This document shows, piece after piece, positions 17,016 to 31,030 of a stretch of 64,000 nt of DNA (position 1 is the first letter of the stretch; every line of letters begins with the position of its first letter). Origin of the DNA: Candidatus Saccharimonadales bacterium (GTDB lineage: Bacteria > Patescibacteriota > Saccharimonadia > Saccharimonadales > UBA4665); the NCBI GenBank assembly GCA_035247965.1, contig DATFHW010000025.1, positions 510,551-574,550 of the forward strand, in the 5' to 3' direction. The translations under genes were made by a program, and so were the position numbers. The notes below the pieces were generated by a model. The model saw only the letters and a list, made by a program, of their open reading frames with translations. It did no database searches and had not been told where the DNA came from.

Positions 17016-17038
17016 TCACACCGAAAGGAAGTACCACC

Positions 17039-17805: not shown

Positions 17806-17823
17806 CCCTGTAAAACTCGGATC

Positions 17824-17897: not shown

Positions 17898-17916
17898 CCA
17901 TATAAAAAATGCTAAC

Positions 17917-17945
17917 TTGAATATATGCGCTATTTATGGCATAGT
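17917..17945 (+). promoter_or_regulatory. promoter TTGAAT-N17-CATAGT
   Basis: AT-rich patch inside the GC-rich block, just upstream of 18002..18310. Confidence 0.35.
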
Positions 17946-18001
17946 ACACATGTTCAAGTTTGCACCTGTTTTGACCCGCGACTCACGAAAGCGAGACATC
18001 C

Positions 18002-18310
18002 ATGGCACAGAAACAGTCTGGCCCGGTCCGCACATTCATCACCGGGGGCCTTCTGGGGCTCGGCCTGTACGGCATCGGCGCGTACGCCATGAGCAGGGCT
18101 ATGCCGCACGGCAACGCTCAGAAGCAGATCTTTCACGGGGGTCCCCTTGCCGCCTCCCCCACCTCCGTGGTCATGATGTTTCTCAGCCTGGTGGTACTGG
18201 CGGCGTTGTACGCCTTCGACTCCGAGGGCCGAAGCGCCAAGGCTACGCTCCTGAAAGTCGCTGCCAGCTGGGTGATCGTATGGGCCACCATCGGCGCCCT
18301 TATCTTCTAG
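18002..18310 (+). CDS. block A membrane protein (102 aa, 3 TM)
   Basis: Track ORF. GC3-rich. Hydrophobic helices. Confidence 0.7.
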   Translation: MAQKQSGPVRTFITGGLLGLGLYGIGAYAMSRAMPHGNAQKQIFHGGPLAASPTSVVMMFLSLVVLAALYAFDSEGRSAKATLLKVAASWVIVWATIGALIF

Positions 18311-18456: not shown

Positions 18457-20343
18457 TTATTGTAAGACGGCTTTTACGCGGCGGATACCAGCGCTACTGG
18501 CTTCTTCTTTCAGGATCTTGAAGTGCTTGCCGTCTTCGGCCAGCTGGCCAGTGTGATCCACGTGCGGCCCGCCACAGATTTCAAAGCTAAAGCGGTCGTC
18601 GCCCTCGCCCATCTGGTAGATTTTGACGGTATCGCCGTAGCGATCACCAAAGGCGCCCAATGCCCCCATGGCCATCGCTTCTTTGGTTGGATATTCCTTC
18701 CAGAACACTGGCAAATCTTTGGCAATCTGTTCGTTTACAATGTCTTCCACCTGCTTAATTTGCTCGGGAGTCATCTTGGCGTCATGGCTAAAGTCAAAAC
18801 GCAGACGTTCTTCAGTAATGTTAGAGCCGCGTTGGATCACGTGATTGCCCAACACTTGGCGCAGTGCCTGGTACATCAGGTGCGTGGCGGTGTGATACTT
18901 TTTGTGCTGCAACGTTTGGCCACCCAATCCACCCTTGAACACGCCCTTTGCAGCGCCTTGCGAACGCTGGCGTTGCTCATTCATATATCGGTCAAAATTA
19001 GCGCGCCAGTTTTCCTCAACCGGTTTGCTCCAATGGAAGGCTTCTTCTACGGTGAGCTCAGCTGGAAAACCATAGGTGTCGTGTAGTTTGAAGATCATTT
19101 CGCCAGTAATTTCAGCTTCGTTTTCGGCAAGCTTATTAAATTCGCGCACACCCTGACGAATGGTTTGGCGAAAAGCTTTTTCTTCTTTCACAAGCACTGC
19201 GATTACGGTGTCGCGCTTGGCAGCTACCTCTGGAAAATCGGCGTGATACAGATCAGCAATAGCCGGAATAACTTCTTCCAGAAAGTTCTGTTCAATTCCC
19301 AGGTTGAATGATTTCATAATGGCGCGACGAACCAAGCGGCGCATCACGTAACCCTGCTCTTTGTTACTGGGCACGATGCCGTCCACGGCCAAAAAGGCGG
19401 CGGCGCGCAGGTGGTCGGCAATAATGCGCATGGCGTTGGTGTTGCTGCTGTATGGTTTGCCCGAAAGCTTTTCGAGCTTTTGAATGATAGGCCACATGAG
19501 GCTAATCTTGAACACGTCAGGGTCGTTCAAAACTGCTGCCGCGATGCGCTCCAGGCCCGATCCGTGGTCAATGTTTGGTTTTTCCAATGGCACAAACGTA
19601 CCCTCAGCCTCTTTGCGGTAAGCCATAAACACGTTGTTGCCGATTTCCATAAAGCGGCCGCAATCGCAGTTAGGGTGGCATTCGGGACCAAAATCGGTGT
19701 TATGCGGGGTGCCAAAATCGTAGAACATTTCGCTGTCCGGGCCACACGGGTCGCCAATTGGTGTGTTTTCGGGGTTGCCGTTACGGCTCCACCAGTTTTT
19801 GCTGCCATCGTAATAAAAGATGCGCTCGCCTTCTTTAATACCGCGCTGGTAGCCGTCTTCTTCGGAACCAATGTCGGCCACACCGTTGCTCAAGCCTTTT
19901 TGAGCAAACAGTTTTTGCCACAATTCGGCAGCTTCGGTGTCTTTGGGGATGTTATATTCGGGTGCACCAATAAAACAGGTAATGTACAGTTTGCTTGGGT
20001 CCAGGCCAACCACGTCGGTCAAGAATTCAAACATCCACGGCACTTGTTCGGCCTTAAAATAGTCGCCCAAAGACCAGTTGCCGAGCATTTCAAAGAAGGT
20101 GGTGTGGCGGTTGTCGCCCACTTCCAGAATGTCTTGGGCACGCAAGCACGTTTGGCTGTCAACAATCCGCGTGCCTTCGGGGTGTTCCTCGCCTAACAGA
20201 TATGGAATCATGGGCTGCATGCCAGAACCGGTGAACAAAGTGGTGGGATCGTTTTGCGGAACCAACAGCGCTCGAGGAATCGCCGCGTGCTTACGGTGCG
20301 TAAAGAAATCTAAATAAGCGGTGCGGATTTGTTGTGCATTCAT
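18457..20343 (-). CDS. alaS: alanine--tRNA ligase, short form lacking the C-terminal C-Ala/DHHA1 region
   Basis: N-terminal AlaRS catalytic motifs (FTGSGMQP, FEMLGNWSLGDYFK). Editing-domain motifs are present, including CGGPHV. Only 628 aa. Confidence 0.9.
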   Translation of the reverse strand: MNAQQIRTAYLDFFTHRKHAAIPRALLVPQNDPTTLFTGSGMQPMIPYLLGEEHPEGTRIVDSQTCLRAQDILEVGDNRHTTFFEMLGNWSLGDYFKAEQVPWMFEFLTDVVGLDPSKLYITCFIGAPEYNIPKDTEAAELWQKLFAQKGLSNGVADIGSEEDGYQRGIKEGERIFYYDGSKNWWSRNGNPENTPIGDPCGPDSEMFYDFGTPHNTDFGPECHPNCDCGRFMEIGNNVFMAYRKEAEGTFVPLEKPNIDHGSGLERIAAAVLNDPDVFKISLMWPIIQKLEKLSGKPYSSNTNAMRIIADHLRAAAFLAVDGIVPSNKEQGYVMRRLVRRAIMKSFNLGIEQNFLEEVIPAIADLYHADFPEVAAKRDTVIAVLVKEEKAFRQTIRQGVREFNKLAENEAEITGEMIFKLHDTYGFPAELTVEEAFHWSKPVEENWRANFDRYMNEQRQRSQGAAKGVFKGGLGGQTLQHKKYHTATHLMYQALRQVLGNHVIQRGSNITEERLRFDFSHDAKMTPEQIKQVEDIVNEQIAKDLPVFWKEYPTKEAMAMGALGAFGDRYGDTVKIYQMGEGDDRFSFEICGGPHVDHTGQLAEDGKHFKILKEEASSAGIRRVKAVLQ

Positions 20344-20394: not shown

Positions 20395-20423
20395 TTGACA
20401 AAGTACGGTTTTTGTACTATGGT
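20395..20423 (+). promoter_or_regulatory. promoter TTGACA-N17-TATGGT for GC-rich block B
   Basis: TTGACA at 20395-20400 and TATGGT at 20418-20423. It is divergent from the putative alaS promoter. Confidence 0.5.
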
Positions 20424-20515
20424 TATCGCATCGTCTTCATACGTGAGGAGGTGAACATTAATTGCAGAGCTGAGGCGAATAATCGTCTCGGTAGATTTCA
20501 ACCGAAAGGTGCCCA

Positions 20516-20668
20516 GTGTTTCACGGTGTAAGTACCGGAGACGTTGCTGTCATCTTCACGGCTGCCGTCATCGGTAGCTACCTCGGCAAGTATGCTCGGC
20601 CCAGGACGATCATTTTCGCAGCAATTGCGATAACAATCATCGGTGGGCTGGTCATGAAATACGTTTAG
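20516..20668 (+). CDS. block B 2-TM miniprotein (50 aa, GTG start; not in ORF track)
   Basis: MFHGVSTGDVAVIFTAAVIGSYLGKYARPRTIIFAAIAITIIGGLVMKYV. CCGAAAGG lies 7 nt upstream of the GTG. Confidence 0.55.
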   Translation: MFHGVSTGDVAVIFTAAVIGSYLGKYARPRTIIFAAIAITIIGGLVMKYV

Positions 20669-20680
20669 AAGGAAGGTGTC

Positions 20681-20842
20681 ATGGACCCCTACAAACTCTT
20701 GGTTGGCCTGTTGGTGGTGATCATCTTGGGCACTCTGCTCCTGATGATCATCAAGAAGGCCGGCAAGACCGTCGTGCTGTGCGCAATCGGCCTGGCCCTG
20801 ATCCTGGGACCGATGGCCTGCACCGCGCTCACCAAGCAGTAG
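20681..20842 (+). CDS. block B 2-TM miniprotein (53 aa; not in ORF track)
   Basis: MDPYKLLVGLLVVIILGTLLLMIIKKAGKTVVLCAIGLALILGPMACTALTKQ. GAAGGAAGG lies upstream. 49 of 54 codons end in G or C. Confidence 0.65.
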   Translation: MDPYKLLVGLLVVIILGTLLLMIIKKAGKTVVLCAIGLALILGPMACTALTKQ

Positions 20843-20856
20843 TCGAAGGAGTCCGA

Positions 20857-21009
20857 ATGGACAAAACGACACTGATCGTGGGCCTTATGGCCGCGATCAT
20901 CGGTGGTGGAATCGTCGCGAAGTTGGCTAGTAGAGGCTACCGTGCTGCTGCCATAACGATCATCGTTGTGAGTGTGCTCGCAGCCATCGCTGCCGACCTC
21001 GTGAAGTAA
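20857..21009 (+). CDS. block B 2-TM miniprotein (50 aa)
   Basis: MDKTTLIVGLMAAIIGGGIVAKLASRGYRAAAITIIVVSVLAAIAADLVK. Internal Met of track ORF 20779..21009, preceded by GAAGGAG. Confidence 0.65.
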   Translation: MDKTTLIVGLMAAIIGGGIVAKLASRGYRAAAITIIVVSVLAAIAADLVK

Positions 21010-21029
21010 CCAACCGAAAGGAGTGGCGC

Positions 21030-21194
21030 ATGCCGCTTCCCCAGAAAGAAACCCGTGGTGGCTGGTGGTGGCTCCGTCTGCTGATGCTGGTGGCCTTCCT
21101 GGTCGCCTGCCTCATCGCATTCGGGTCGGACCTCATCAACGGCAACTCCAACGAGCCGCACCGCCCGCCGCACAGCACCTCGACCCACAAGTAG
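21030..21194 (+). CDS. block B single-TM miniprotein (54 aa; not in ORF track)
   Basis: MPLPQKETRGGWWWLRLLMLVAFLVACLIAFGSDLINGNSNEPHRPPHSTSTHK. CCGAAAGGAG lies upstream. Confidence 0.6.
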   Translation: MPLPQKETRGGWWWLRLLMLVAFLVACLIAFGSDLINGNSNEPHRPPHSTSTHK

Positions 21195-21201
21195 GAGCAC
21201 T

Positions 21202-21288
21202 ATGAAGCACAAGATTGCCGTGGCCCTGTTCATCCTCCTGGTTTTCGGAGGAATGACCTGGGCCTACCTGGGCCTCGAAGGCAAGTAG
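21202..21288 (+). CDS. block B single-TM micropeptide (28 aa; not in ORF track)
   Basis: MKHKIAVALFILLVFGGMTWAYLGLEGK. TAGGAG lies 5 nt upstream. Confidence 0.5.
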   Translation: MKHKIAVALFILLVFGGMTWAYLGLEGK

Positions 21289-21290
21289 CC

Positions 21291-21470
21291 GTGGAGGTCA
21301 CCGTACCGCTCGTGGGGCTTGGCGTAGCCGCCGTTGCCGTGGTCCTCGGACTGTCGCTGACGGCCCTGCCCAACCCCAAGGTGAGCCTGCTGGGCCGCCG
21401 CATCGCTACGTTCGTGACGCTTGTGAGCGTTGCGGTCGTGCTGCTGTATGTGGCGGTTCATCACAACTAG
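21291..21470 (+). CDS. block B 2-TM miniprotein (59 aa, GTG start; not in ORF track)
   Basis: MEVTVPLVGLGVAAVAVVLGLSLTALPNPKVSLLGRRIATFVTLVSVAVVLLYVAVHHN. It starts 2 nt after the upstream stop. Confidence 0.5.
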   Translation: MEVTVPLVGLGVAAVAVVLGLSLTALPNPKVSLLGRRIATFVTLVSVAVVLLYVAVHHN

Positions 21471-21483
21471 GAAGAAGGTGCTC

Positions 21484-21693
21484 ATGAGTGCTCTGGCACT
21501 CAGACTCAGTGCAGACACGGCAACCACCCTGGCGGTTATCGCCGCCATCGGCAGCCTGCTGATGTGCGCCCTGGGGATCGCCCTGGCCGCCTCGCGTAAA
21601 ACCGAGGTCAAGCGGCGTGGCAAGATCATCATCACGTTCCTCGTGGTGGCCTGGATCGGGTTCTTCCTGATCTGGAAGGCGCTCCATGAGTGA
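21484..21693 (+). CDS. block B 2-TM miniprotein (69 aa)
   Basis: Internal Met of track ORF 21430..21693, preceded by GGAAGAAGG. MSALALRLSADTATTLAVIAAIGSLLMCALGIALAASRK... Confidence 0.65.
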   Translation: MSALALRLSADTATTLAVIAAIGSLLMCALGIALAASRKTEVKRRGKIIITFLVVAWIGFFLIWKALHE

Positions 21694-21728
21694 GCTCGTG
21701 GTAGCCACCTGAACAACCGGTTGCAGGT

Positions 21729-21761
21729 CCGGCGTCATTCGCCTAAAAACGAGGACGCCGG
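21729..21761 (+). terminator. GC-rich hairpin CCGGCGTC/GACGCCGG with no U-tract
   Basis: 8-bp perfect stem between two sub-arrays of block B. Confidence 0.35.
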
Positions 21762-21785
21762 TCTGCCGCATAGAAAGTAACAGAC

Positions 21786-21983
21786 GTGGAAACATTCATT
21801 TCCCTGGCCGCAACCGGACAGAACGACAACACCCTGGGTGCTGCCGCGGTCGCGCTCGTTGTCGCCCTCGTCTTCGTGCTGGCCGGTGCATTCGCCCCGT
21901 TCAGCAAGGCTGGAAGGCTCAAGCTGATCGGTCTCGGCGCACTGACCTGCGTCGCCGCGATCGCCCTGATCTGGGTGTCCTAG
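21786..21983 (+). CDS. block B 2-TM paralog 1 (65 aa, GTG start)
   Basis: Track ORF. AGAFAPFSKAGRLKLIGLGAL matches AGFAAPFSGKTRVCLALIGVV of paralog 4. Confidence 0.65.
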   Translation: METFISLAATGQNDNTLGAAAVALVVALVFVLAGAFAPFSKAGRLKLIGLGALTCVAAIALIWVS

Positions 21984-21993
21984 AGAGGAAAAC

Positions 21994-22200
21994 ATGCACA
22001 CGCTCGTCACACTGGCACAGGCTGGTTCGGACAGCTTTCACACGATGGTGGGCGCGATCGCTCTGGCGATTGTGCTCTGCATCTGTGGAGCCGCCTTCTG
22101 GATCCACCGAAAGGCCGGGCAGGCTACGCCGAAATCGATCGGTCTCGCAGTTCTGGGACTGGCGATCATGGGCGTGGCGCTCGTTCTGATGATCATCTAG
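21994..22200 (+). CDS. block B 2-TM paralog 2 (68 aa)
   Basis: Track ORF. RBS GAGAGGAAAA. Confidence 0.7.
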   Translation: MHTLVTLAQAGSDSFHTMVGAIALAIVLCICGAAFWIHRKAGQATPKSIGLAVLGLAIMGVALVLMII

Positions 22201-22208
22201 GGAGGAAC

Positions 22209-22424
22209 ATGAACGTCGCACAAACCCTCGCAGCCGCAAGTAACATGACCCCCACGTCGTGGGTCGGCCTTCTGGTCGCCTTCATTGGCGTGGTAGTCAT
22301 GTGCTTCAACGGCCTGCGTGCGCAGATCACCGGTAAACCGAGCCTCAAGCTCTGGGTGATCGGCGCAATCCTGGTCGTCGGCGGCATCGTGCTCGCAGCC
22401 CAGACAGGCATTCACTCGACCTGA
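22209..22424 (+). CDS. block B 2-TM paralog 3 (71 aa)
   Basis: Track ORF. RBS GGGAGGAA. Confidence 0.7.
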   Translation: MNVAQTLAAASNMTPTSWVGLLVAFIGVVVMCFNGLRAQITGKPSLKLWVIGAILVVGGIVLAAQTGIHST

Positions 22425-22436
22425 GAGGAAAAAGGA

Positions 22437-22625
22437 ATGCTCGAAAAATTGGCCGCAGCGGATCTGAACAACGCGGTCTTTCCCCCGGCCCTTTTTGGGG
22501 TCGTCGCCCTCGCCTTCATCACGGCCGGCTTCGCCGCTCCGTTCAGCGGAAAGACACGCGTCTGCCTGGCCCTCATCGGCGTGGTGGCCGCTGTGATCTG
22601 CTTCCGTCTGATCACAAAGTCCTAG
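22437..22625 (+). CDS. block B 2-TM paralog 4 (62 aa)
   Basis: Track ORF. RBS GAGAGGAAAAAGGA. Confidence 0.7.
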   Translation: MLEKLAAADLNNAVFPPALFGVVALAFITAGFAAPFSGKTRVCLALIGVVAAVICFRLITKS

Positions 22626-22664
22626 GAAAGCGTGTACGCGCTTCGGCCAACCGAGAGGAAAAGG

Positions 22665-22895
22665 ATGCAACAAACGCTAGCTGTAACACCCGGTGAAAGC
22701 CTGCAGGGCATGGCGCTGGTCGTTGGCTACTTCGCCACCGCCGGCTTCCTGGCCCTTACAGCCTACTGCCTGCACGGGACGTTCATGCGCCCGGGCAGCT
22801 TGGGCAAACGAGCCACCAGGTTCCTGGTCGCTGTTCTGTCGATTGTGGCCATGGCGTTCATCGTCATGCACACGGTACCGAGGAGAAATCAATGA
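22665..22895 (+). CDS. block B 2-TM paralog 5 (76 aa)
   Basis: Internal Met (MQQTLAV) of track ORF 22632..22895, preceded by GAGAGGAAAAGG. Confidence 0.65.
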   Translation: MQQTLAVTPGESLQGMALVVGYFATAGFLALTAYCLHGTFMRPGSLGKRATRFLVAVLSIVAMAFIVMHTVPRRNQ

Positions 22896-23107
22896 AGGAA
22901 GCGCTCATCATCGCGGCCGCCCAGCAGACGACGTCTGTGGGTGAGCACAAGGCCGAGCTCATCGGGATGGCCATCGGTTTCATCCTGACCATCGCCGGAG
23001 TCTGGCGAAACGCCAACAACCAAAGCGACAAGAACAAGGGCGGTTTCCTCGTCGGCCTGGGCCTCGTGATCGTCGTCGGGAGCGGGATCATCCTGCTGTA
23101 CTCATAG
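22892..23107 (+). CDS. block B 2-TM paralog 6 (71 aa)
   Basis: Track ORF. ATGA overlap with the upstream gene. RBS GAGGAGAAA. Confidence 0.7.
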   Translation: MKEALIIAAAQQTTSVGEHKAELIGMAIGFILTIAGVWRNANNQSDKNKGGFLVGLGLVIVVGSGIILLYS

Positions 23108-23160
23108 TAGGCGCCGCGACCTAAGTCGCTCTGCAATTCTGAACAACCCGCACGAAGACG

Positions 23161-23212
23161 GCCTCCGGGCTGGCACCCGCCAGCAACCTGCCGTTCCCCG
23201 GCATCCGGAGGC
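23161..23212 (+). terminator. nested GC-rich hairpin GCCTCCGG...CCGGAGGC with no U-tract
   Basis: Outer 8-bp stem enclosing an inner GCTGGC-accc-GCCAGC stem. It follows the six-paralog array. Confidence 0.4.
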
Positions 23213-23314
23213 ACGTCGTGTAAACATATGGTTGAGCGCCCGCGCTCCCATCACTGTTTGCACGACTTTTTCATACTTATTTATTTTTTACGAACATCAT
23301 ACACATTACATACG

Positions 23315-23343
23315 TTGACATTGCATGCTCGCGGGCGTACACT
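23315..23343 (+). promoter_or_regulatory. promoter TTGACA-N17-TACACT
   Basis: Consensus -35 at 23315-23320 and TACACT at 23338-23343, within an AT-rich patch. Confidence 0.55.
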
Positions 23344-23382
23344 GTCCACGTCTGTAAAAAACGACGACCCCAAGGGGGAAAC

Positions 23383-23535
23383 ATGAGCAAGTCCAAGCAC
23401 GCTCGCGGTCGCTGGGACGGTTGCATTGTGCCGGCCGTTCTGCTGACTGTCGCCTTGGCGGCTGGGATCTACGTCTTCCACAGTGAGCTCGGGACGTTCT
23501 TTGTCAATCTGGTGCAGCAGCTCGTAGGACGCTAA
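23383..23535 (+). CDS. basic-N-terminus single-TM miniprotein (50 aa; not in ORF track)
   Basis: MSKSKHARGRWDGCIVPAVLLTVALAAGIYVFHSELGTFFVNLVQQLVGR. AAGGGGGAA lies upstream. Confidence 0.6.
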   Translation: MSKSKHARGRWDGCIVPAVLLTVALAAGIYVFHSELGTFFVNLVQQLVGR

Positions 23536-23765
23536 TGTCCAACGAACACAAGCACCGCAAGGGCAAACAGCCCGATACCTACGCCGCGGCTAGGAAACGT
23601 GTGCGCCGAGCGGACTGCCGCCGTCGCTGCCATGAACGGTGCGAGTGCGTACGCGACGCGACTGCCTCTGCCGCCCGCGGCTGCTTCAGTGGCTCTACCG
23701 TAATGATCGTGGCGGTTTTACTGGCTGCTGTGGTCGCTCTCGCAGCGATTACCGGCAAGCTCTAG
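23535..23765 (+). CDS. basic, Cys-rich N-terminus with a C-terminal TM anchor (76 aa)
   Basis: Track ORF. TAATG stop/start overlap with the upstream gene. MSNEHKHRKGKQ... ending in VMIVAVLLAAVVALAAITGKL. Confidence 0.65.
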   Translation: MSNEHKHRKGKQPDTYAAARKRVRRADCRRRCHERCECVRDATASAARGCFSGSTVMIVAVLLAAVVALAAITGKL

Positions 23766-23941
23766 CTCCACCGCTCTACCCGCCTTCTGTGGTGGCCACC
23801 GTGAGCAATTAAACTCGGTGGCCACCAATGGGCCGTTTTACAGACATGGTCGTGCAGGATTGCACGAAAACAGCTTGCATTACCGCTTCCGCGGCTCTTT
23901 TTGTTTTCCTTTCTGCACGACCTACACACATCATGAGTATT

Positions 23942-23970
23942 ATTGACAACGCTTATCCCCATGTGTACAC
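23942..23970 (+). promoter_or_regulatory. promoter TTGACA-N17-TACACT (second copy)
   Basis: TTGACA at 23942-23947 and TACACT at 23965-23970. Confidence 0.55.
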
Positions 23971-24018
23971 TGGTGTACGTCCATTTGTTTGTTCATTCAT
24001 GCACTACCGGAGGCCCTT

Positions 24019-24153
24019 ATGGGGACCCACGTCAAAACGCGCGCACCCAAGGCAGCCAAGTCGTCACCCACGGGTGGCTTCGGACGAAAGTTCCTGCTGT
24101 TGATCGTCGTCGCCGGGCTCATCGCCTGGGGCATCACGTCGATCGGTCACTGA
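24019..24153 (+). CDS. basic-N-terminus tail-anchored miniprotein (44 aa; not in ORF track)
   Basis: MGTHVKTRAPKAAKSSPTGGFGRKFLLLIVVAGLIAWGITSIGH. CCGGAGG lies upstream. Confidence 0.6.
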   Translation: MGTHVKTRAPKAAKSSPTGGFGRKFLLLIVVAGLIAWGITSIGH

Positions 24154-24401
24154 CCACACGCTCCTCCAGCACGCCTTCCCAGCCTGATTAGAAAAAGCAG
24201 TGAGCCTCCCGCTGGGCAGCCCGCACCACAAGTGCCCTGCCCCGGGAGGATCCTGTAACACCCCATACCCGCCCCTTTGCTATGAACCCGGACAACCCCC
24301 ACAAACCTTTGTTGAGGTCGCACTCGCGACATCCGAAGGCACAATCGTGCACGCAACCCTACCCTACCAACTTTTACGTGCACGATTTTTTCCTATTTAC
24401 A

Positions 24402-24430
24402 TTGACAATACCTAATATCGGTGATATAAC
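24402..24430 (+). promoter_or_regulatory. promoter TTGACA-N17-TATAAC
   Basis: TTGACA at 24402-24407 and TATAAC at 24425-24430. Confidence 0.5.
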
Positions 24431-24489
24431 GTACGCAGTTCGTCTGAACATAGTACGTTGAAAATTTAGTTGTATTGGAGGTGAGATCT

Positions 24490-24630
24490 TTGCAGCTCGC
24501 TTCAGAGGGCTTCGGCAGTGCCGGGCCTATTTTTTGTTACATCGGAATGGTCCTATTCGTCCTATGGTGGTGGCGTGGACGTGGTCCTCGACCTCCCAGG
24601 GGTGGCGGCCGTTCCGATATCGTCCACTAG
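24490..24630 (+). CDS. single-TM miniprotein with a WWW and Arg/Gly/Pro-rich tail (46 aa, TTG start; not in ORF track)
   Basis: MQLASEGFGSAGPIFCYIGMVLFVLWWWRGRGPRPPRGGGRSDIVH. GGAGGTGA lies 6 nt upstream of the TTG. Confidence 0.4.
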   Translation: MQLASEGFGSAGPIFCYIGMVLFVLWWWRGRGPRPPRGGGRSDIVH

Positions 24631-24720
24631 GACGGCGACACTGACGTGAGCTGTTCACACGCACAATCCGTGGACTTTCCCCGTCCATTCAAACACCGCC
24701 GAGTAAAACGGAGGTAACAC

Positions 24721-25044
24721 ATGAGTGCATCCGCGCTCATCACGGCCACCCAGCTGGCCAGTTCGTCCGGCACCAGCCTTGCGGCGGCAGCCAGCCCCGA
24801 CGTGCAGACCGCAATCCTGGTGGGTTGTGGCATCGTGCTCGGGGCCGGTCTGCTCATCAAGCTGGTGATGCCCAAGATCCCGCTCTGGCTGATCATGTTG
24901 GTCGCCTGCGTGATCTGCGCCGGCGTCAGCTTCATGGGCCTCTACGCCGGCAACCTGCCGTTCAAGTCGATCGCCGGCGCCCTCCTGGTGCTGTCGATCC
25001 TCACCTTCCTGGCGGCCAAGCTCGTCAAGGGCTCGCGGCACTAG
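24721..25044 (+). CDS. block B membrane protein (107 aa, 3 TM), MSASAL family
   Basis: Track ORF. RBS ACGGAGGTAAC. Confidence 0.7.
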   Translation: MSASALITATQLASSSGTSLAAAASPDVQTAILVGCGIVLGAGLLIKLVMPKIPLWLIMLVACVICAGVSFMGLYAGNLPFKSIAGALLVLSILTFLAAKLVKGSRH

Positions 25045-25086
25045 GACACCGTCCTGTCCGACTCACCGTAAAGGGGATCTCGGTTC

Positions 25087-25182
25087 ATGCCGACTTCCTG
25101 TGGGATGACCCCCGGCCAGACGGTAATCGCAGTCGCGTTCGTCCTTCTGGCCGGTGTGGTCGTGATCGCAGGGCTTAGCTAG
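25087..25182 (+). CDS. CGMTPG-motif single-TM micropeptide (31 aa; not in ORF track)
   Basis: MPTSCGMTPGQTVIAVAFVLLAGVVVIAGLS. Homologous to 25469..25585. Confidence 0.5.
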   Translation: MPTSCGMTPGQTVIAVAFVLLAGVVVIAGLS

Positions 25183-25210
25183 ATCCGAGTCCATCAACGG
25201 AGGTAACCAT

Positions 25211-25456
25211 ATGGGTGCATCCGCACTCGTACCCCTCGCAAGCATGCTGCAGAAGGAGCACCCCGTTCCCGGGATGTTCCTCGTGGCAGTCTTCGGCGTG
25301 GGGTTCGTCGTCTCGGCGATCGCGGTCGCGAGGTACGGCAATAAGAAGGGCGCCGAGAAGGTACTGCTCGTCAGCACCATCGTCGGTGCCCTGGGCGGCG
25401 GAGCAGCTGTCTGGATCATGATCATGCTGCTCAGCGCCATACGCATGCAGGGATGA
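25211..25456 (+). CDS. block B membrane protein (81 aa, 2 TM), MGASAL family
   Basis: Track ORF. Its RBS and first codons are near-identical to those of 24721 (ACGGAGGTAAC..ATGnGTGCATCCGC). Confidence 0.7.
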   Translation: MGASALVPLASMLQKEHPVPGMFLVAVFGVGFVVSAIAVARYGNKKGAEKVLLVSTIVGALGGGAAVWIMIMLLSAIRMQG

Positions 25457-25468
25457 GGGCCTGAATCC

Positions 25469-25585
25469 GTGGGAAGCTTCTGTGGAATGACCCCGGGCGA
25501 GCTGATGTTCGCAGGCGTCTTCGTCCTTCTGTTCGGAATTGTGTACGCCATCGGGCGACGCAACAAGAACAAGGAGGGCGACTGA
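25469..25585 (+). CDS. CGMTPG-motif single-TM micropeptide (38 aa, GTG start; not in ORF track)
   Basis: MGSFCGMTPGELMFAGVFVLLFGIVYAIGRRNKNKEGD. Confidence 0.5.
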   Translation: MGSFCGMTPGELMFAGVFVLLFGIVYAIGRRNKNKEGD

Positions 25586-25644
25586 TGCTCACCGCACCAC
25601 TCGCCGGGGTCAGCTCCGCTACCGACACGTCCGCCAACAAGTAG
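25585..25644 (+). CDS. possible 19-aa peptide (not hydrophobic)
   Basis: MLTAPLAGVSSATDTSANK. TGATG coupling, with AAGGAGGG 6 nt upstream. It may be a remnant. Confidence 0.25.
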   Translation: MLTAPLAGVSSATDTSANK

Positions 25645-25663
25645 ACCAACGGAGGTATCTACT

Positions 25664-25900
25664 GTGCAACACCTCGCTGTTGCGGCATTCGCTGCCGGCA
25701 ACACCGGAAACCTCGTCTCCGCCCAGATGCTGGTGGGAGAGTTCGTTGGGATATTCATCATCGCGACGATCTACACCATCGTCAAGGCAAAGCGGAAGAA
25801 CACCAGGAATCCGGTCGCGTTCGGCATCACCATGGGCGCCGTCACCGGCATCCTCGCCGTCCTGCTCACGGTCTTCCTGGGCACCTACTTTCGGCTGTAA
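25664..25900 (+). CDS. block B 2-TM protein (78 aa, GTG start)
   Basis: Track ORF. RBS ACGGAGGTA. Confidence 0.65.
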   Translation: MQHLAVAAFAAGNTGNLVSAQMLVGEFVGIFIIATIYTIVKAKRKNTRNPVAFGITMGAVTGILAVLLTVFLGTYFRL

Positions 25901-25910
25901 GGAGGGGTAA

Positions 25911-26114
25911 ATGAGCTCCGCGAGCTCTGTTCTGGAAACGGGCGTCACCATCGGCGGCACGCACATCAACGGCCTGCTTCTGATCGCAGCGATCATCGTG
26001 GTCGTGGCGATTGTGGCGTTTGCGCTGCTGAAAACCACCAAGGCAGTGATCGTCTCGGTGGCAACGGCCGCCATCATCGCCGGTGCAACCGCACACGGAT
26101 GGTGGTGGCACTGA
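25911..26114 (+). CDS. block B 2-TM protein (67 aa)
   Basis: Track ORF. RBS AAGGAGGGG. Confidence 0.7.
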   Translation: MSSASSVLETGVTIGGTHINGLLLIAAIIVVVAIVAFALLKTTKAVIVSVATAAIIAGATAHGWWWH

Positions 26115-26203
26115 TGTCCAGCGTCAGCCCTGGTGCCCTTGGCTGGGCAGTGGCCCTGATCGTCGTGGGCGTCATCGTCGTCATACGACGAGGCCGCCGG
26201 TGA
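26114..26203 (+). CDS. single-TM micropeptide with an RRGRR tail (29 aa; not in ORF track)
   Basis: MSSVSPGALGWAVALIVVGVIVVIRRGRR. TGATG coupling with the upstream gene. Confidence 0.5.
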   Translation: MSSVSPGALGWAVALIVVGVIVVIRRGRR

Positions 26204-26225
26204 CCAAATCAACGGGGGACTTCCG

Positions 26226-26303
26226 ATGAAGTGGGTCGGCGTGCTGATCGTACTCATCGGAATTGTCGCGATGTTCTACGGAACTCGTGGCACACGAAGG
26301 TAA
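26226..26303 (+). CDS. single-TM micropeptide (25 aa; not in ORF track)
   Basis: MKWVGVLIVLIGIVAMFYGTRGTRR. GGGGGA lies upstream. Confidence 0.45.
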   Translation: MKWVGVLIVLIGIVAMFYGTRGTRR

Positions 26304-26355
26304 TCGCAGATAACGGCAGCAGATCGCTCGCCGTTCAACGGAGGGAAACCCGCAC

Positions 26356-26499
26356 ATGAGTCACCTCGTCCGCGCCATCAACCTGGCGGCCGTCGACAAC
26401 CGCGCGTTCAAGCTGGAGGACCACCCGGTCTTCTGCATCGTGTCGATCGTCGTGTTCGCCGCCGGCGTCATCTACCTGTGGCGCAAGAAGAGCTCGTAA
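26356..26499 (+). CDS. tail-anchored miniprotein (47 aa; not in ORF track)
   Basis: MSHLVRAINLAAVDNRAFKLEDHPVFCIVSIVVFAAGVIYLWRKKSS. ACGGAGGGAAA lies upstream. Confidence 0.6.
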   Translation: MSHLVRAINLAAVDNRAFKLEDHPVFCIVSIVVFAAGVIYLWRKKSS

Positions 26500-26508
26500 G
26501 GGGGCATC

Positions 26509-26649
26509 ATGCACATCACACAGGCAGCGCTGGAGTACCTGGCGTACACGCCGAGCAACAAGCACTTCGGCATGAACAACACCACCTTCTTCACGGTGGT
26601 GTTCGGCGGAATCGGTCTGGTCATCTTCCTTCTCACGAAGAAGAAGTAG
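26509..26649 (+). CDS. tail-anchored miniprotein (46 aa; not in ORF track)
   Basis: MHITQAALEYLAYTPSNKHFGMNNTTFFTVVFGGIGLVIFLLTKKK. AAGGGGG lies upstream. Same architecture as 26356. Confidence 0.6.
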   Translation: MHITQAALEYLAYTPSNKHFGMNNTTFFTVVFGGIGLVIFLLTKKK

Positions 26650-26747
26650 TTCTTGGCCGTCGTCGGACTTCTTCTGATCAAGCGGCGTGGCGACTAGCCT
26701 CGACCGCACACTCCACCCACGCAACACCTCACGGAAGGAACACGCGC

Positions 26748-26906
26748 ATGTCGCGTCTCACCGTCAGCGCACAGACCCTCGCGGGCGACGTCGCCGCCAA
26801 GTCCGGACACGGGATCCCCGTCGGCTGGATCGGCTTCGGCGCCGTCATGATCGTCCTGCTGGTCATCGGTGTCCGCTGGGCCCGCGGTCGCAACAACAAG
26901 GGCTGA
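26748..26906 (+). CDS. single-TM miniprotein (52 aa)
   Basis: MSRLTVSAQTLAGDVAAKSGHGIPVGWIGFGAVMIVLLVIGVRWARGRNNKG. Internal Met of track ORF 26478..26906, preceded by CGGAAGGAA. Confidence 0.6.
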   Translation: MSRLTVSAQTLAGDVAAKSGHGIPVGWIGFGAVMIVLLVIGVRWARGRNNKG

Positions 26907-26953
26907 CCAGCACTCAACGGGCAACTGCCCACTAACGAAGGGAGACCCCGGAC

Positions 26954-27454
26954 ATGTCCGGTCTCAACCCCGACATGGTCACCACGGCCGCCGACATCAA
27001 CTTCGGTGGTGACCAGGCGTTCCGGTCGCTGTACAGCGGCGTCGGCCTCACCGGTCTGCTGTTCTCGGCCGCGATCGTGTTCGTCTACCACTGGGCCAAG
27101 AGTCCGAAGTGGGGCATCGGCACCGGCGTGATCATCGTGTTCTTCACGAACTTCCTGATCACCGGGCTGCTCATCCCGCTCGCGCTCAGCTACAACACTG
27201 GCTCCCTCAACTTCATGGGCGCCAGCAAGTTCAAGGGCCTCCTGAACATGGCCGGCATCGGTCAGGCCGAGCAGCTCGGCACGTTCGTCATCTGCGTCGT
27301 GCTGGTGTTCCTGCTGGGGAAGAAGTTCAAGTGGGGGAAGGGAGCGCAGCTCGTCATGATCGTCGTGCTACCGCTGTTCTACCTCCACTGGTTCCGCCCC
27401 TTCTGGGAGTCCACCGGCATCGACCTCGGCAGCATGAACATCCCGTTCCTCTGA
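26954..27454 (+). CDS. block B polytopic membrane protein (166 aa, about 4 TM)
   Basis: Track ORF. RBS GAAGGGAGA. Confidence 0.75.
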   Translation: MSGLNPDMVTTAADINFGGDQAFRSLYSGVGLTGLLFSAAIVFVYHWAKSPKWGIGTGVIIVFFTNFLITGLLIPLALSYNTGSLNFMGASKFKGLLNMAGIGQAEQLGTFVICVVLVFLLGKKFKWGKGAQLVMIVVLPLFYLHWFRPFWESTGIDLGSMNIPFL

Positions 27455-27504
27455 CCGTCGGCCGGTCCGATACAACTAAACAATAACTGAATGTTCGACG
27501 CGAA

Positions 27505-27572
27505 CGACGTGTCTCTGGCAGCCCCGCGGGCCCAGAAAGGACTCTCGGCACCCTGCCGGAGACACGCCGTCG
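27505..27572 (+). terminator. long GC-rich hairpin CGACGTGTCTC-TGGCAG...CTGCC-GGAGACACGCCGTCG at the end of block B
   Basis: Complementary arms of about 17 nt are visible by eye. No U-tract. Confidence 0.4.
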
Positions 27573-27772
27573 TGCGAATAGTAGATCGGTAGATCAGGTG
27601 GTCGTAGCATTGCGATGTTGGCGGCTCCTAGCGAGTTTTTTTGTAGCGGTCATTCCCGCTGCTCCCGCCTTCGATCCCATTGCTATTCGCACGACAAACC
27701 ACCATGTATGATTTTTATGCAACGATGCGACCCGTTTGGTCGTTCGCATCTTTACCCAAGAACCATAGAAAT

Positions 27773-27821: not shown

Positions 27822-28982
27822 TTACTGAACGATGCCGCCGCCCACCACGCGGTCGCCCTGGTAAATCACGGCCGACTGTCCTGGTGTGATAGCGCGAACT
27901 TCCTCGGCTAAATCTAATCGCAATTGGTTGTTACCGGTGAATTCCAAACCCGAAACAGCCACCAGCGGCGCGCGATATCGGGTGCGCACCTGGTATTGCT
28001 CGCCTGGTTTTGGTGCATCGTTAATCCAATGCAAGCTGGTAAGCATCAAATGCTTCTTCCATAAACGATCATCCTGCAAGTCGGTAGTCACGTACACTTC
28101 GTTTTTGGCCATGTCTTTGCCCACCACGTAGTACGGCAAGCCGCCGCCCACGTTCAGGCCATGACGCTGGCCGATGGTATAAAACAGTGCGCCGTCATGC
28201 TCGCCAACCACCTGCCCGTGTTGTTCAACAATATTACCTGGTTCGGTGGTCACAAATTGCTGCAAGAATTCCTTAATTCCCACCTTGCCCACAAAGCAAA
28301 TACCCTGACTGTCCTTTTTCTCGGCCGTTGCCAGGCCTAGTTTTTTGGCCATCTCGCGAATCTGCGGCTTTTCAAAATCGCCAATTGGCATCAGGGTTTT
28401 GCTAAGTGCGTCTTCGGTCACTCGATATAAAAAGTAGCTTTGGTCTTTATTCGCGTCCAACCCCACTAGCAGCTGCGCGGTTGCGGGTAACGCGTCCGTG
28501 CGCGAGCCTGCCTGCTCTAGCGAGGGATATGCCAGCGGCATCATTGCCGACTCTGAGTCGGTAGGCGGAAGCGCGGATTGGCCGTGTTTGATGCGCGCAT
28601 AATGACCAGTGGCGATCATGTCGGCGCCGTCTTCCAAAGCCGCATTCAAAAACAGTTTAAACTTCACCTCTTGGTTGCACATAATGTCCGGATTTGGCGT
28701 AAGACCAGCTTTGTAGCCCTCCAACATGTAGTCCACGACTTTATGGCGATATTCTTTTTCAAAATCATACATTTTGAACGGAATGCCCAGTTGCACGGCA
28801 ACGCGTTTGGCATCCTGATAATCTTCTTTCCACGGGCAATCAAAGCCCGGCAGATCCTGGCTCCAATTTTTCATATACACGCCGGTTACATCGTAGCCCT
28901 GCTCTTTTAGTAACGCTGCCGTTACCGAGCTGTCTACGCCGCCGCTCATGCCAACAAAGACTTTTTGTGGTGAATGCGTCAT
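27822..28982 (-). CDS. mnmA: tRNA 2-thiouridine(34) synthase MnmA, carrying an in-frame insertion of about 30 aa
   Basis: SGGVDSSV PP-loop, the ATGHYAR and KDQSYFLY motifs, and ICFVG. There are 40 aa between HYAR and LLVG. Confidence 0.92.
   Translation of the reverse strand: MTHSPQKVFVGMSGGVDSSVTAALLKEQGYDVTGVYMKNWSQDLPGFDCPWKEDYQDAKRVAVQLGIPFKMYDFEKEYRHKVVDYMLEGYKAGLTPNPDIMCNQEVKFKLFLNAALEDGADMIATGHYARIKHGQSALPPTDSESAMMPLAYPSLEQAGSRTDALPATAQLLVGLDANKDQSYFLYRVTEDALSKTLMPIGDFEKPQIREMAKKLGLATAEKKDSQGICFVGKVGIKEFLQQFVTTEPGNIVEQHGQVVGEHDGALFYTIGQRHGLNVGGGLPYYVVGKDMAKNEVYVTTDLQDDRLWKKHLMLTSLHWINDAPKPGEQYQVRTRYRAPLVAVSGLEFTGNNQLRLDLAEEVRAITPGQSAVIYQGDRVVGGGIVQ
28498..28577. repeat. copy of the dispersed hairpin repeat module, located inside the mnmA coding sequence
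   Basis: GTGCGCGAGCC..GCGAGGGATATGCCAGCGGCATCATTGC includes a 28-nt exact match to 42641-42668. It also aligns to 35301-35365. Confidence 0.8.
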
Positions 28983-29024: not shown

Positions 29025-29918
29025 TTACGAGCGAGAGGCGCGTTCCAAATGCTTGCGCAAAACCAGCAGTGCGTGCTTGCGGCCCAACCAAAACGAAACC
29101 AGTAGCAAAGGCAGCATGATCAGCGACGGCAGCCACAACACCTTGGTAATAATGGTGGTCGATCCGTTATTGGAGGCCGCGCTGTTACTGGACGACGTAA
29201 TTGCTCCGTTCGCCACCGCCACCACCTGCAGGTACGCCGTGAGTCCGTTTTTGTCAGTGGCCTTGATAATTACCGAGTATTCGCCAGCCGTATCGTACAC
29301 GTGCTGAATGTTAAATGTGCCTGGCAACTCCAAGCTCATTAGGGTGGTCGCCTTGTTATCACCCCAGTCAATACTTATAGCGTACGGCCCATTTCCGCCC
29401 GAAAGGCTGATCGGCCACGTGAGCGTTTCACCCGGATTCGCGCCACGACGAGCGTAGTCACTGGTTAGAATCAGCAACGCTGTACCGCTGGGGTTAAACT
29501 GATTGTCGTTGAATGTCACCCTTACCACATTAGAGTCGGGACTTGCCTGGTCGAGCGCATCATATTGGCGCACCACAAGATCGTTTTCGCCACTAAATAA
29601 GTCAATTTGAATGCTGTAACTGCCGTTCTGGCAGATAGCCGATCCCATAAAAACATTGTTGTCGAACACTTTTACCAACAGGCCGGTTTTACACAAACCC
29701 GAAACCGTAATCGGCACATTGGTAAATGTTTGGCCGTTCGTTGGCGTGGTGATAGTTGGTGGCGTTGAAGGAGCTGCGCTCGCAACCGCCCCTGTTAAAC
29801 CTGTTGCGTTATCTTGCGGGTTCGTGAGCGCTTGCGCCGAACCAGGCAGCAAGCAGAGTGCGAGCGCAGCAACAAGACTGCTCGTGATCCGCCCTAACTT
29901 CTGCATTGCTTGCTTCAT
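29025..29918 (-). CDS. secreted, C-terminally anchored surface protein with Ig-like and PKD-like domains
   Basis: Signal peptide ending in GSAQA. The segment ISIDWGDNKATT...HVYDTAGEYSVIIKATD looks like a PKD domain. C-terminal TM. Confidence 0.7.
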   Translation of the reverse strand: MKQAMQKLGRITSSLVAALALCLLPGSAQALTNPQDNATGLTGAVASAAPSTPPTITTPTNGQTFTNVPITVSGLCKTGLLVKVFDNNVFMGSAICQNGSYSIQIDLFSGENDLVVRQYDALDQASPDSNVVRVTFNDNQFNPSGTALLILTSDYARRGANPGETLTWPISLSGGNGPYAISIDWGDNKATTLMSLELPGTFNIQHVYDTAGEYSVIIKATDKNGLTAYLQVVAVANGAITSSSNSAASNNGSTTIITKVLWLPSLIMLPLLLVSFWLGRKHALLVLRKHLERASRS

Positions 29919-29960
29919 AGTTTTGTGAGCGAGCGCGCTGCAATGCGCGCTGCAACTTTG

Positions 29961-30983
29961 CTATTTCTTCTTTTTGGTTGATGTGCCCGTAGCCTTCTGG
30001 ACGATGCGGCGGTTGTACGACTTGATCATCTTTGGCAGAACCAGTACCGCAAAGGCGATCAGCGCCAAGATAACAACAACGGTAACAATAATTGGGATCG
30101 GCACAACGTAGAAGGTTTTGGTGGCGGTCAGCAGTTGACCCTTGTCGCCATAGCCCAAGTTTGCTTCAAGGGTATATTTACCGAACGACGTTGCTTTGGT
30201 ACTGATGTCGAACTCAAATCGGCGGATGCTATCTGGCAGAACGTTGCCGCGTGGTTGTGTGTTGTTGATTTCGTAGGTAGCAACTACCTTGCCGGATTTT
30301 TTGAGCTGAATCTTGCCGAATGGCTGCACTTGTACGTTACCGGTATTCTTGATGCGCACTGCACCAACCAGGTTTTTGCCGCTCGTAAAGAATGAGCCAA
30401 TAGATTCCTGATGTGTCTTGGAGTCTACCGTGCGAGTTTCCAGGCTTGCGATGCTGGCTTGCTGCACCAGATTACCAGGGACCGTTACCAGCACCAGCGA
30501 GCCAACACTTGCCGACAAACTAAGGTTCTTGCTGCTATCTACGTCGGCGGGCTCAAAACGAACCGCACCATAGTAGCCGCCAGCGTCAGCATCAGCAGGA
30601 ATGGTGATGGTCACTTTTACATCGTGCTGCTCGTTGGCCTTAATACTAAAGTCAGCCAGTGGTGACGCGTACTTTTTGAAACTGCGCAGTGGTGCCGCTT
30701 GATTGCCGTCGAGCAAAATATTTGGTGTGCCAGATTCGTCCTTGCCAGCTACAAAGTCGTTCACAACTGGATGCAGCGTAACTGTTTCCGACGACATGTT
30801 GGTCACGTACACATCAATAGTTTTACTGTTGCCAGGTTTAATTTCTAAATCGGTTCGCACCGGAGAAACACGAAGTGCGTTACCTGAACCGGCTGTTGCA
30901 GCCATGGCTTGAGCGCCACTGGCTGCAATAATTGCCAGCGCGCTTACGATGATCCCAAATGAGGCAAAAATTTTGCGTCGCAT
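29961..30983 (-). CDS. surface protein with a beta-sandwich N-domain and a C-terminal TM (DUF916/DUF3324-like architecture)
   Basis: Signal peptide, LRVSPVRTDLEIKPGNSKTIDVYVTNMS, a C-terminal TM and a basic tail. Confidence 0.55.
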   Translation of the reverse strand: MRRKIFASFGIIVSALAIIAASGAQAMAATAGSGNALRVSPVRTDLEIKPGNSKTIDVYVTNMSSETVTLHPVVNDFVAGKDESGTPNILLDGNQAAPLRSFKKYASPLADFSIKANEQHDVKVTITIPADADAGGYYGAVRFEPADVDSSKNLSLSASVGSLVLVTVPGNLVQQASIASLETRTVDSKTHQESIGSFFTSGKNLVGAVRIKNTGNVQVQPFGKIQLKKSGKVVATYEINNTQPRGNVLPDSIRRFEFDISTKATSFGKYTLEANLGYGDKGQLLTATKTFYVVPIPIIVTVVVILALIAFAVLVLPKMIKSYNRRIVQKATGTSTKKKK

Positions 30984-31030
30984 CTGATATTCCCTTTTTA
31001 AATTCTTATGTTAATCATACCACGAAAGCA

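Follow-up and report, generated by a model that had tools for sequence, protein, structure and literature searches.

A rare, conserved cassette of predicted membrane miniproteins with putative regulatory hairpin modules between alaS and mnmA of a Saccharimonadales bacterium

Saccharibacteria are ultrasmall bacteria that live on other bacteria. In the Patescibacteria, 441 arrays of 2–11 VirB2-like pilins with a mean identity of 25% have been described, and they are abundant in Saccharimonadia (PMC12102498). A VirB2-like pilin cluster is essential in Southlakia epibionticum, as is the epibiont's type IV secretion system (T4SS), the substrate of which is unknown (PMC10633639, PMC12857230). Tandem virB2 paralogues also occur in the T4SS loci of the diderms Anaplasma and Bartonella, according to their citation in PMC12102498. 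The sequence-divergent pilin arrays of Patescibacteria are the closest described analogue of the element considered here, namely, a series of 31 successive small open reading frames (ORFs) of 14–166 aa, curated in the interval between alaS (18457–20343, minus strand) and mnmA (27822–28982, minus strand), where they lie back-to-back on the plus strand (20516–27454). The array is part of the 64,000-nucleotide stretch that was analyzed as a whole (hereinafter, the window), and it is carried by a soil or root-zone bacterium of the Candidatus Saccharimonadales; the source samples of array-bearing contigs include root metagenomes.

The array and the Patescibacterial pilin arrays come from the same phylum and class, and both consist of small hydrophobic helical proteins encoded in tandem on one strand, with divergent paralogues (about 25% identity in general and 25–41% within the paralogue groups of the array). 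Members with two predicted transmembrane (TM) segments are similar to VirB2-like pilins in size and predicted topology, the helical-hairpin model of one of them, w10, would fit a pilin, and a role in host adaptation has been proposed for the pilins. However, the array comprises 31 genes instead of 2–11, has mixed architectures of one to four TM segments, putative promoters combined with hairpin modules at four places and a conserved terminal gene for a 4-TM protein, and it shows neither signal peptides nor matches to pilin hidden Markov models (HMMs). In the virB2 tandems of Anaplasma and Bartonella, a small membrane protein exposed at the surface of a host-dependent bacterium was likewise amplified and diverged, but the copies are recognizable VirB2 homologues, whereas the array shows no detectable homology of this kind. 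The array locus tag is absent from the supplement of PMC12102498, and a literature search found no description of such an array.

The sequence features support the conclusion that the array ORFs are real genes, predicted to encode membrane miniproteins. A first-pass annotation had proposed a same-strand array of about 31 tiny membrane-protein ORFs, and a mechanical filter (a Shine–Dalgarno (SD)-like motif 4–17 nt upstream plus a Kyte–Doolittle TM segment) bore this out, since the plus strand yielded 27 passing ORFs, the minus strand 1 and 100 dinucleotide-preserving shuffles 0.29 ± 0.55 (maximum 2). Only one other cluster of filter-passing ORFs was present in the window (4 ORFs, 16191–17805). 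The coding share of the array was 5469 of 6939 nt, and GC content at the three codon positions was 0.60/0.45/0.81 in the chosen frames versus 0.56/0.41/0.57 in 21 backbone genes. The earlier count of 18 ORFs shorter than 60 aa was reproduced, and the overlaps reported at 22892 (ATGA), 23535 (TAATG), 25585 (TGATG) and 26114 (TGATG) are all present. A strong SD site had been claimed for every ORF; it is weak for w06 and w08. The 19-aa ORF at 25585 has no TM segment, in line with the exception named earlier, and a 14-aa ORF at 26653 is doubtful. The ratio of non-synonymous to synonymous changes (pN/pS), pooled for the small ORFs, was 0.42–0.60 in frame in comparisons of the related array L002 with its 98%-identical relatives (about 40–55 substitutions per comparison); in other frames, it was 1.3–4.3 in three of five frames for L002 versus L093 and above 1 in only two of five for L002 versus L005. 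The antisense frame that shares wobble positions gave a pN/pS equal to that of the sense frame; the strand was therefore assigned from SD sites and start codons, from the promoters and from G–U pairs of the hairpins. No conserved larger protein, which the first-pass annotation had named as a refutation, was found in another frame or strand: ORFs in alternative frames matched no Pfam family, and relatives showed just fragments of similarity to them. The ORFs are listed below with predicted TM segments and identities to orthologues in related loci (L numbers).

w01, 20516–20668 (+): 50 aa, 2 TM, GTG start; L002 has a 2-TM ORF of equal length at the same position
w02, 20681–20842 (+): 53 aa, 2 TM; identity 40% in L002, 55% in L101
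w03, 20857–21009 (+): 50 aa, 2 TM; 52% in L101
w04, 21030–21194 (+): 54 aa, basic N-terminus, 1 TM, conserved C-terminal ...STHK; 48% in L002, 41% in L099
w05, 21202–21288 (+): 28 aa, 1 TM; 89% in L101
w06, 21291–21470 (+): 59 aa, 2 TM; start uncertain; paralogue of w07
w07, 21484–21693 (+): 69 aa, 2 TM
w08, 21786–21983 (+): 65 aa, 2 TM, N-terminal M..L..LAA motif
w09, 21994–22200 (+): 68 aa, 2 TM; paralogue of w08 and w11
w10, 22209–22424 (+): 71 aa, 2 TM
w11, 22437–22625 (+): 62 aa, 2 TM; 65% in L101
w12, 22665–22895 (+): 76 aa, 2 TM
w13, 22892–23107 (+): 71 aa, 2 TM; ATGA overlap with w12
w14, 23383–23535 (+): 50 aa, basic N-terminus, 1 TM; core gene
w15, 23535–23765 (+): 76 aa, C-terminal TM ending in ITGKL; core gene
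w16, 24019–24153 (+): 44 aa, basic N-terminus MGTHxK, C-terminal TM; core gene
w17, 24490–24630 (+): 46 aa, TTG start, 1 TM, tail RGRGPRPPRGGGR; core gene
w18, 24721–25044 (+): 107 aa, 3–4 TM
w19, 25087–25182 (+): 31 aa, 1 TM, CGMTPG motif; paralogue of w21
w20, 25211–25456 (+): 81 aa, 2 TM; paralogue of w23
w21, 25469–25585 (+): 38 aa, 1 TM; 78% in L101
w22, 25585–25644 (+): 19 aa, no TM, TGATG overlap; coding status uncertain
w23, 25664–25900 (+): 78 aa, 2 TM
w24, 25911–26114 (+): 67 aa, 2 TM
w25, 26114–26203 (+): 29 aa, 1 TM, tail RRGRR, TGATG overlap
w26, 26226–26303 (+): 25 aa, 1 TM
w27, 26356–26499 (+): 47 aa, 1 TM; 67% in L101
w28, 26509–26649 (+): 46 aa, 1 TM; 71% in L002
w29, 26653–26697 (+): 14 aa, doubtful ORF
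w30, 26748–26906 (+): 52 aa, 1 TM
w31, 26954–27454 (+): 166 aa, 4 TM; the most conserved protein and marker of the cassette

About 14 of the ORFs encode two closely spaced TM segments, and five paralogue families were distinguished (w08/w09/w11, w10/w13, w20/w23, w19/w21 and w06/w07); an N-terminal M-x-x-L-x-x-L-A-A motif is common to part of the 2-TM group. The w31 protein consists of a 2-TM unit duplicated internally (hhalign of the N-terminal versus the C-terminal half, E = 4.8e-12), and its changes (13.5 synonymous versus 1.5 non-synonymous) point to strong constraint; the profile of the 2-TM paralogues was unrelated to the w31 family in hhalign. An AlphaFold2 (AF2) model of w10 (predicted local distance difference test (pLDDT) score 73) consisted of a helical hairpin with a short N-terminal helix, whereas that of w31 was unusable (pLDDT 45). 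Lysine and arginine residues are concentrated in the loop of the 2-TM hairpins and in the C-terminal tail of most single-span members, and w14–w16 have the opposite layout, with a basic N-terminal segment and a C-terminal anchor. In w15, 14 such residues fall within the arginine-rich N-terminal 45 aa; its L002 orthologue carries the arginine-rich N-terminal segment KAQRRNAERRVRRQDRRQH on a C-terminal TM anchor, and the tail of w17 is RGG-like. Both w15 and w17 resemble nucleic-acid-binding peptides tethered to the membrane; they are candidates for the reading of the invariant hairpins described below. The product of w04 was considered as a lipoprotein and rejected, the LVAC lipobox not being kept in orthologues. 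It should be noted that w08 is identical to the NCBI protein VJ843_03540 from a Candidatus Saccharimonadales metagenome-assembled genome (809,595-bp contig) and that the exact w31 protein and the complete array recur in an identical contig.

The array fits no described protein or RNA family. Scans of the array ORFs with Pfam, NCBIfam and PHROGs gave nothing above threshold, PHROG matches being found only at E > 0.001; PADLOC had no match for the ten largest ORFs, and a PDB sequence search returned only noise. A Foldseek search of the w10 model against the PDB gave no match at E ≤ 0.001 and recovered generic TM hairpins, with no pilin among the top 50. At gathering thresholds, Rfam recognized only two tRNAs in the window, and at E ≤ 1, it added a single chance-level miRNA match. 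The opinion of the first-pass annotation that the locus is unlike any described system is therefore shared, since four protein libraries, PDB and Rfam recognize no part of it; domain searches likewise found no enzyme, regulator or mobility function in any array ORF, as had been stated.

The second component of the cassette is a putative scaffold of regulatory DNA and RNA. Multiple promoters had been proposed earlier, and plus-strand promoter-like sites were indeed located at 20395, 23315, 23943 and 24402, in AT-richer gaps. In addition, each of four non-coding stretches (23108–23382, 23766–24018, 24154–24489 and 27455–27760) contains a GC-rich hairpin (HP1) followed by a second hairpin (HP2), the basal stem of which is always GUCGUGC...GCACGAC; in modules A–C, the double hairpin is followed by a promoter of the form TTGACA-17-TA...T. 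The positions of these features are as follows:

P0, 20395–20423 (+): promoter-like site TTGACA-17-TATGGT, preceding unit 1 (w01–w13)
Module A, 23161–23266 (+): HP1 23161–23212 and HP2 23215–23266 with arms GTCGTGTAAACA/TGTTTGCACGAC, then a T-run; probable 3′ end of unit 1
PA, 23315–23343 (+): promoter-like site TTGACA-17-TACACT of unit 2, invariant in L002 and L005
Module B, 23790–23922 (+): HP1 23790–23827 and HP2 23848–23922 with arms GGTCGTGCAGGA/TTCTGCACGACC; probable 3′ end of unit 2
PB, 23943–23971 (+): promoter-like site TTGACA-17-TACACT of unit 3, almost identical in L099
Module C, 24203–24387 (+): HP1 about 24203–24251 and HP2 24343–24387 with arms AATCGTGCACG/CGTGCACGATT, then a T-run; probable 3′ end of unit 3
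PC, 24402–24458 (+): TTGACA 24402–24407, 17-nt spacer and extended −10 element TGaTATAAC 24422–24430, read by eye; promoter-like site of unit 4
Module D, 27508–27695 (+): HP1 27508–27566 and HP2 27569–27695 with arms GTCGTGCGAATAGTAG/TTGCTATTCGCACGAC; probable 3′ end of unit 4, extending beyond position 27572, where the region first noted ends

The module stretches are 85–91% identical between lineages versus about 45% DNA identity of the flanking ORFs. Stem pairs are kept across lineages, with plentiful G–U pairs on the plus strand; compensatory changes were found in 6 of 41 pairs of module A (fold z-score relative to shuffles, −5.2) and in 7 of 45 pairs of module D (fold z-score −4.3), and the inner stem of module C covaries as CACG/CGTG in the window, CAGC/GCTG in L002 and CAGG/CCTG in L097. 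Within the 7-kb array, the GUCGUGC/GCACGAC pair was counted four times, and the rest of the window has none; in control loci of other Saccharimonadales (1.46 Mb), chance matches occur at a rate of about one per 70 kb. Even where the proteins can barely be aligned and w31 is 26–34% identical, as in L099 and L097, the modules persist. The PC region is conserved in L002, L097 and L099, and the direct repeat AGTTCGT-N8-AGTACGT (24437–24458), which follows its extended −10 element directly, is kept in the same loci; it may serve as an operator or as an element of leader RNA. The division of the array into four sigma-70-type units, with P0 driving w01–w13, PA driving w14–w15, PB driving w16 and PC driving w17–w31, is a well-supported prediction. 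Since the hairpins are placed after w13, w15, w16 and w31, they are read as 3′-end structures of these units; G–U pairs and position suggest that they act in the sense RNA as 3′-end or terminator structures and that some sequence-specific factor reads them. Intrinsic terminators and hairpins of the repetitive extragenic palindromic (REP) type are similar in their position at unit 3′ ends, and T-runs follow two of the four HP2 stems; however, the modules are much larger, consist of two hairpins with a 7-nt stem base invariant in all copies and lineages, are confined to the cassette, are more conserved than the flanking genes and have no Rfam match. Matches of a module D 16-mer in 33 viral contigs were rejected as unrelated repeated coding sequence lacking the partner arm.

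Collinear arrays with an equal block structure were found in L002 (a 1.10-Mb contig), L005, L093–L096 and L100/L101, and fragments were found in L009, L010 and L012. Gene order mnmA–alaS–ftsA is kept in the alaS loci of 80 Saccharimonadales species representatives (L013–L092), and their mnmA–alaS and alaS–ftsA junctions range from 15 nt to 8 kb. Both alaS junctions are insertion hot spots across Saccharimonadales, and in L045, large unrelated genes on the strand of alaS fill about 8 kb there. In none of these 80 loci did a structural detector find the array, nor did an HMM of the enlarged w31 family find a w31 homologue; a scan of GTDB genomes with the w31 family gave no match, the family had five representatives among 1.84 billion representative proteins, and no w31 homologue was found beyond Saccharimonadales. 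In L099, a collinear array of about 3 kb occupies the same alaS–mnmA site (alaS 81.5% and w31 26% identical), and in L097, a w31 relative stands at the head of a short array elsewhere in the chromosome, at a site unrelated to this one. The cassette was therefore concluded to be a discrete, rare unit that predates the clade of the window. Housekeeping proteins of the window and of L002 are 87–88% identical, the small proteins 25–55% and w31 71%, and paralogues were gained or lost even between 98%-identical genomes. In two blocks, paralogues undergo duplication, loss and fast divergence under weak purifying selection; the conserved core consists of the four hairpin-plus-promoter modules, the basic-tailed proteins w14–w17 and w31. 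Taken together, the data indicate that the cassette is a real, rare and conserved set of predicted membrane miniproteins with its own putative regulatory RNA and DNA scaffold. A gene with a GGDEF domain lies between the w31 homologue and mnmA in L002 (10842–11630), and likewise in L005, L009 and L093; it is missing in the window, where the gap between w31 and mnmA is just 367 nt.

The codon usage of the array differs sharply from that of the backbone (ATC 87% versus 30%, TTC 91% versus 28%, AAG 84% versus 40% and GTC 48% versus 10%). In w31, codons ending in C or G account for 100% of usage for six amino acids, and GC content at third positions (GC3) of the w31 family is 0.91–0.96 in four lineages. 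Translational selection was rejected as the cause because the ATP synthase genes use backbone codons. The usage of the array recurs in three other orphan patches of the window, which mostly encode membrane proteins:

16131–18310 (+): GC3-rich block between ftsA and alaS with four predicted membrane proteins (217, 97, 157 and 102 aa), no Pfam match
46081–48663 (−): small TM proteins (88, 116, 85 and 84 aa) and a 242-aa protein; ATC, TTC and AAG 85–100%
51481–52530 (−): 300/328-aa orphan VJ843_03755; ATC, TTC and AAG 85–100%

Since these patches share the usage of the island, the genome has two codon-usage classes. Relatives of the block at 16131–18310 (28–69% identity) were found in the array-bearing lineages L101, L093/L094, L002 and L099 and in none of the 80 other loci; the block is possibly associated with the array, and because it tracks these lineages, alaS seems to be embedded in a larger island. 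An actinobacterial (host) donor received no support from homology, the homologues of the 328-aa orphan being all unnamed or Saccharimonadales proteins.

The distribution of charges suggests that the proteins insert into the cytoplasmic membrane of the producer itself. Because lysine and arginine sit in the loop of the 2-TM hairpins, this basic loop would be cytoplasmic and the hairpins would be oriented N-out/C-out; the single-span proteins would mostly be N-out with the basic C-terminal tail inside, and w14–w16 would be anchored through the C-terminal TM segment. That the array encodes resident membrane proteins in four units is a well-supported prediction. The explanation proposed is that a discrete chromosomal cassette would express about 30 integral-membrane miniproteins from four sigma-70-type units, each closed by the conserved double hairpin with its GUCGUGC...GCACGAC second-stem base, and that the products would form a variable layer or assembly with short ectodomains in the envelope, where an obligate epibiont meets its host or competitors. 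The array would thereby work like the VirB2-like pilin arrays of other Patescibacteria, without detectable membership of that family. Assignment to a variable envelope or host-interface layer is the weakest step and is put forward only tentatively, at somewhat less than even probability.

Several points weigh against this explanation. TM segments and topology were derived from hydropathy and charge alone, the pN/pS values come from few substitutions, and the antisense frame scores like the sense frame. The explanation also leaves the codon usage unaccounted for (ATC, TTC, AAG and others at 84–100% in the array versus 21–40% in the backbone, ATP synthase included). Among the larger window ORFs scanned, there was no gene for an adhesin, a secretion system or pilus assembly, and a membrane-internal role unrelated to the host is equally compatible with the data.

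Among other explanations, it is possible, though unlikely, that the array supplies a set of membrane proteins for immunity or exclusion, directed against membrane-active toxins of neighbors or against phage entry. Immunity proteins to pore-forming bacteriocins are small and have 3–4 TM segments, and the array products are similarly small, polytopic and fast-evolving, vary in copy number and include no enzymes; however, PADLOC (for the ten largest ORFs) and PHROG gave no match, toxin genes or their fragments and recombinases are not present, and most members belong to a few paralogue families that arose in situ and keep a conserved order, rather than being unrelated acquired genes. The holin or superinfection-exclusion role suggested by the first-pass annotation was not borne out either, in view of the lack of PHROG matches and of phage, plasmid or viral-contig relatives and the stable chromosomal synteny across species.

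Export of the miniproteins into the membrane of the host cell, where they would open or remodel it for feeding in the manner of Inc proteins or viroporins, is distinctly improbable. Chlamydial Inc proteins are encoded by clustered, fast-evolving genes, share a bilobed two-helix hydrophobic domain with similarity limited to this hydrophobic motif and are secreted through a type III system into the host-derived membrane. A bilobed hydrophobic domain is present in the 2-TM ORFs of the array, which also evolve rapidly, in an organism whose lifestyle is obligately epibiotic and whose relatives depend on an essential T4SS of unknown substrate; the codon usage, moreover, may resemble that of high-GC actinobacteria, the usual hosts. 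Inc proteins are, however, larger, and in the array, no secretion signal was recognized, no secretion genes lie nearby, the positive-inside charge pattern suits ordinary insertion into the membrane of the producer, and no homologues were found outside Saccharimonadales. A more specific version, in which the miniproteins would be delivered into the actinobacterial host membrane at the attachment site for feeding, with the codon usage, kept across lineages, reflecting this destination and the invariant hairpins serving as handles in a dedicated sorting of RNA or protein, bound, for example, by the arginine-rich, membrane-tethered w15, is conjectural and still less probable.

It is equally improbable that the 2-TM members are extremely diverged VirB2-type pilins that provide alternative subunits for the T4SS pilus needed on the host. 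The abundance of pilin arrays in Saccharimonadia and their importance in S. epibionticum would fit this possibility, as would the comparable within-array identity and the N-out/C-out hairpin with a basic loop, modeled as helical by AF2. However, the profiles PF04956 (TrbC/VirB2) and PF18895 (T4SS_pilin), a match to which defines a pilin in PMC12102498, were listed for no window ORF and were not among the 25 Pfam families most matched by 93 array proteins of five lineages at E-values up to 10; there was also no pilin among PDB sequence matches or, for the w10 model, among the top 50 Foldseek matches. Half of the ORFs have 1 or 3–4 TM segments, a Sec signal peptide is absent, and the number of genes exceeds the known maximum of 11. 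Pfam scans that covered 30 of the larger window ORFs found no T4SS component, and there was no adjacent virB4 in the window.

Persistence of horizontally acquired high-GC DNA (a degraded prophage or an integrative element) without a cellular role is very unlikely. The strongly atypical codon usage, the variable mnmA–alaS junction and the second insertion site in L097 would be explained; however, no integrase, tRNA or flanking repeat was found at the array or its flanks, and w31 and the 328-aa GC3-rich orphan had no match in phage, plasmid and viral collections, IMG/VR included. Furthermore, synteny and ORF structure persist across lineages 81–88% identical in alaS, purifying selection acts strongly on w31 and the modules, and the high GC3 of the w31 family is maintained in four lineages.

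Bacteriocin-like hydrophobic peptides with immunity partners are highly improbable, since, for all the resemblance to the blp and pln loci of streptococci and lactobacilli, in which small hydrophobic ORFs are arranged in several units with conserved promoters and regulatory DNA around variable coding content, no general double-glycine leader was found in the array, the flanks have no C39-peptidase ABC transporter, modification enzyme, two-component or other regulator, and the basic cytoplasmic loops and tails point to resident membrane proteins; on the same grounds of leader, exporter and regulator, a class II bacteriocin/immunity locus was rejected. Two other candidates were rejected. In type I toxin–antitoxin repeats, every toxin is served by a promoter of its own and by a cis antisense RNA, with no operonic SD-coupled translation; this does not agree with 31 ORFs in four units with SD sites and overlaps of 1–4 nt. 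An integron cassette array is contradicted by the absence of attC core pairs (RYYYAAC...GTTRRRY) from both strands, the lack of an integrase in the flanks and the fixed unit order across lineages.

The array is flanked by housekeeping genes. Downstream of mnmA, a conserved run at 29025–34115 (minus strand) contains five surface-protein-like genes with weak WxL-interacting, PGBD, Fn3 and PKD signals, followed by a bactofilin-like gene and the ATP synthase operon. Farther along the minus strand, the window contains a MacB/FtsX-type ABC permease (55215–56666) and the R subunit of a type I restriction enzyme (61929–63998), cut by the window end.

Patescibacteria, including Saccharibacteria, are obligate epibionts, and their interaction with the host, as well as the substrates and accessory parts of their essential surface machines, are among the questions of the field. 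The 18 of 31 genes shorter than 60 aa are easily missed and represent an annotation gap. The proposed roles can be approached through the conserved parts, namely, the four putative promoters, the hairpin motif with its invariant base, w15 with its arginine-rich segment and w31 with its duplication, and the presence of two sharply distinct codon-usage classes within one tiny genome calls for explanation. About 1% of a genome of approximately 0.8–1.1 Mb would be spent on some 30 fast-evolving miniproteins set in a strictly conserved scaffold, which is a large investment for a reduced organism.

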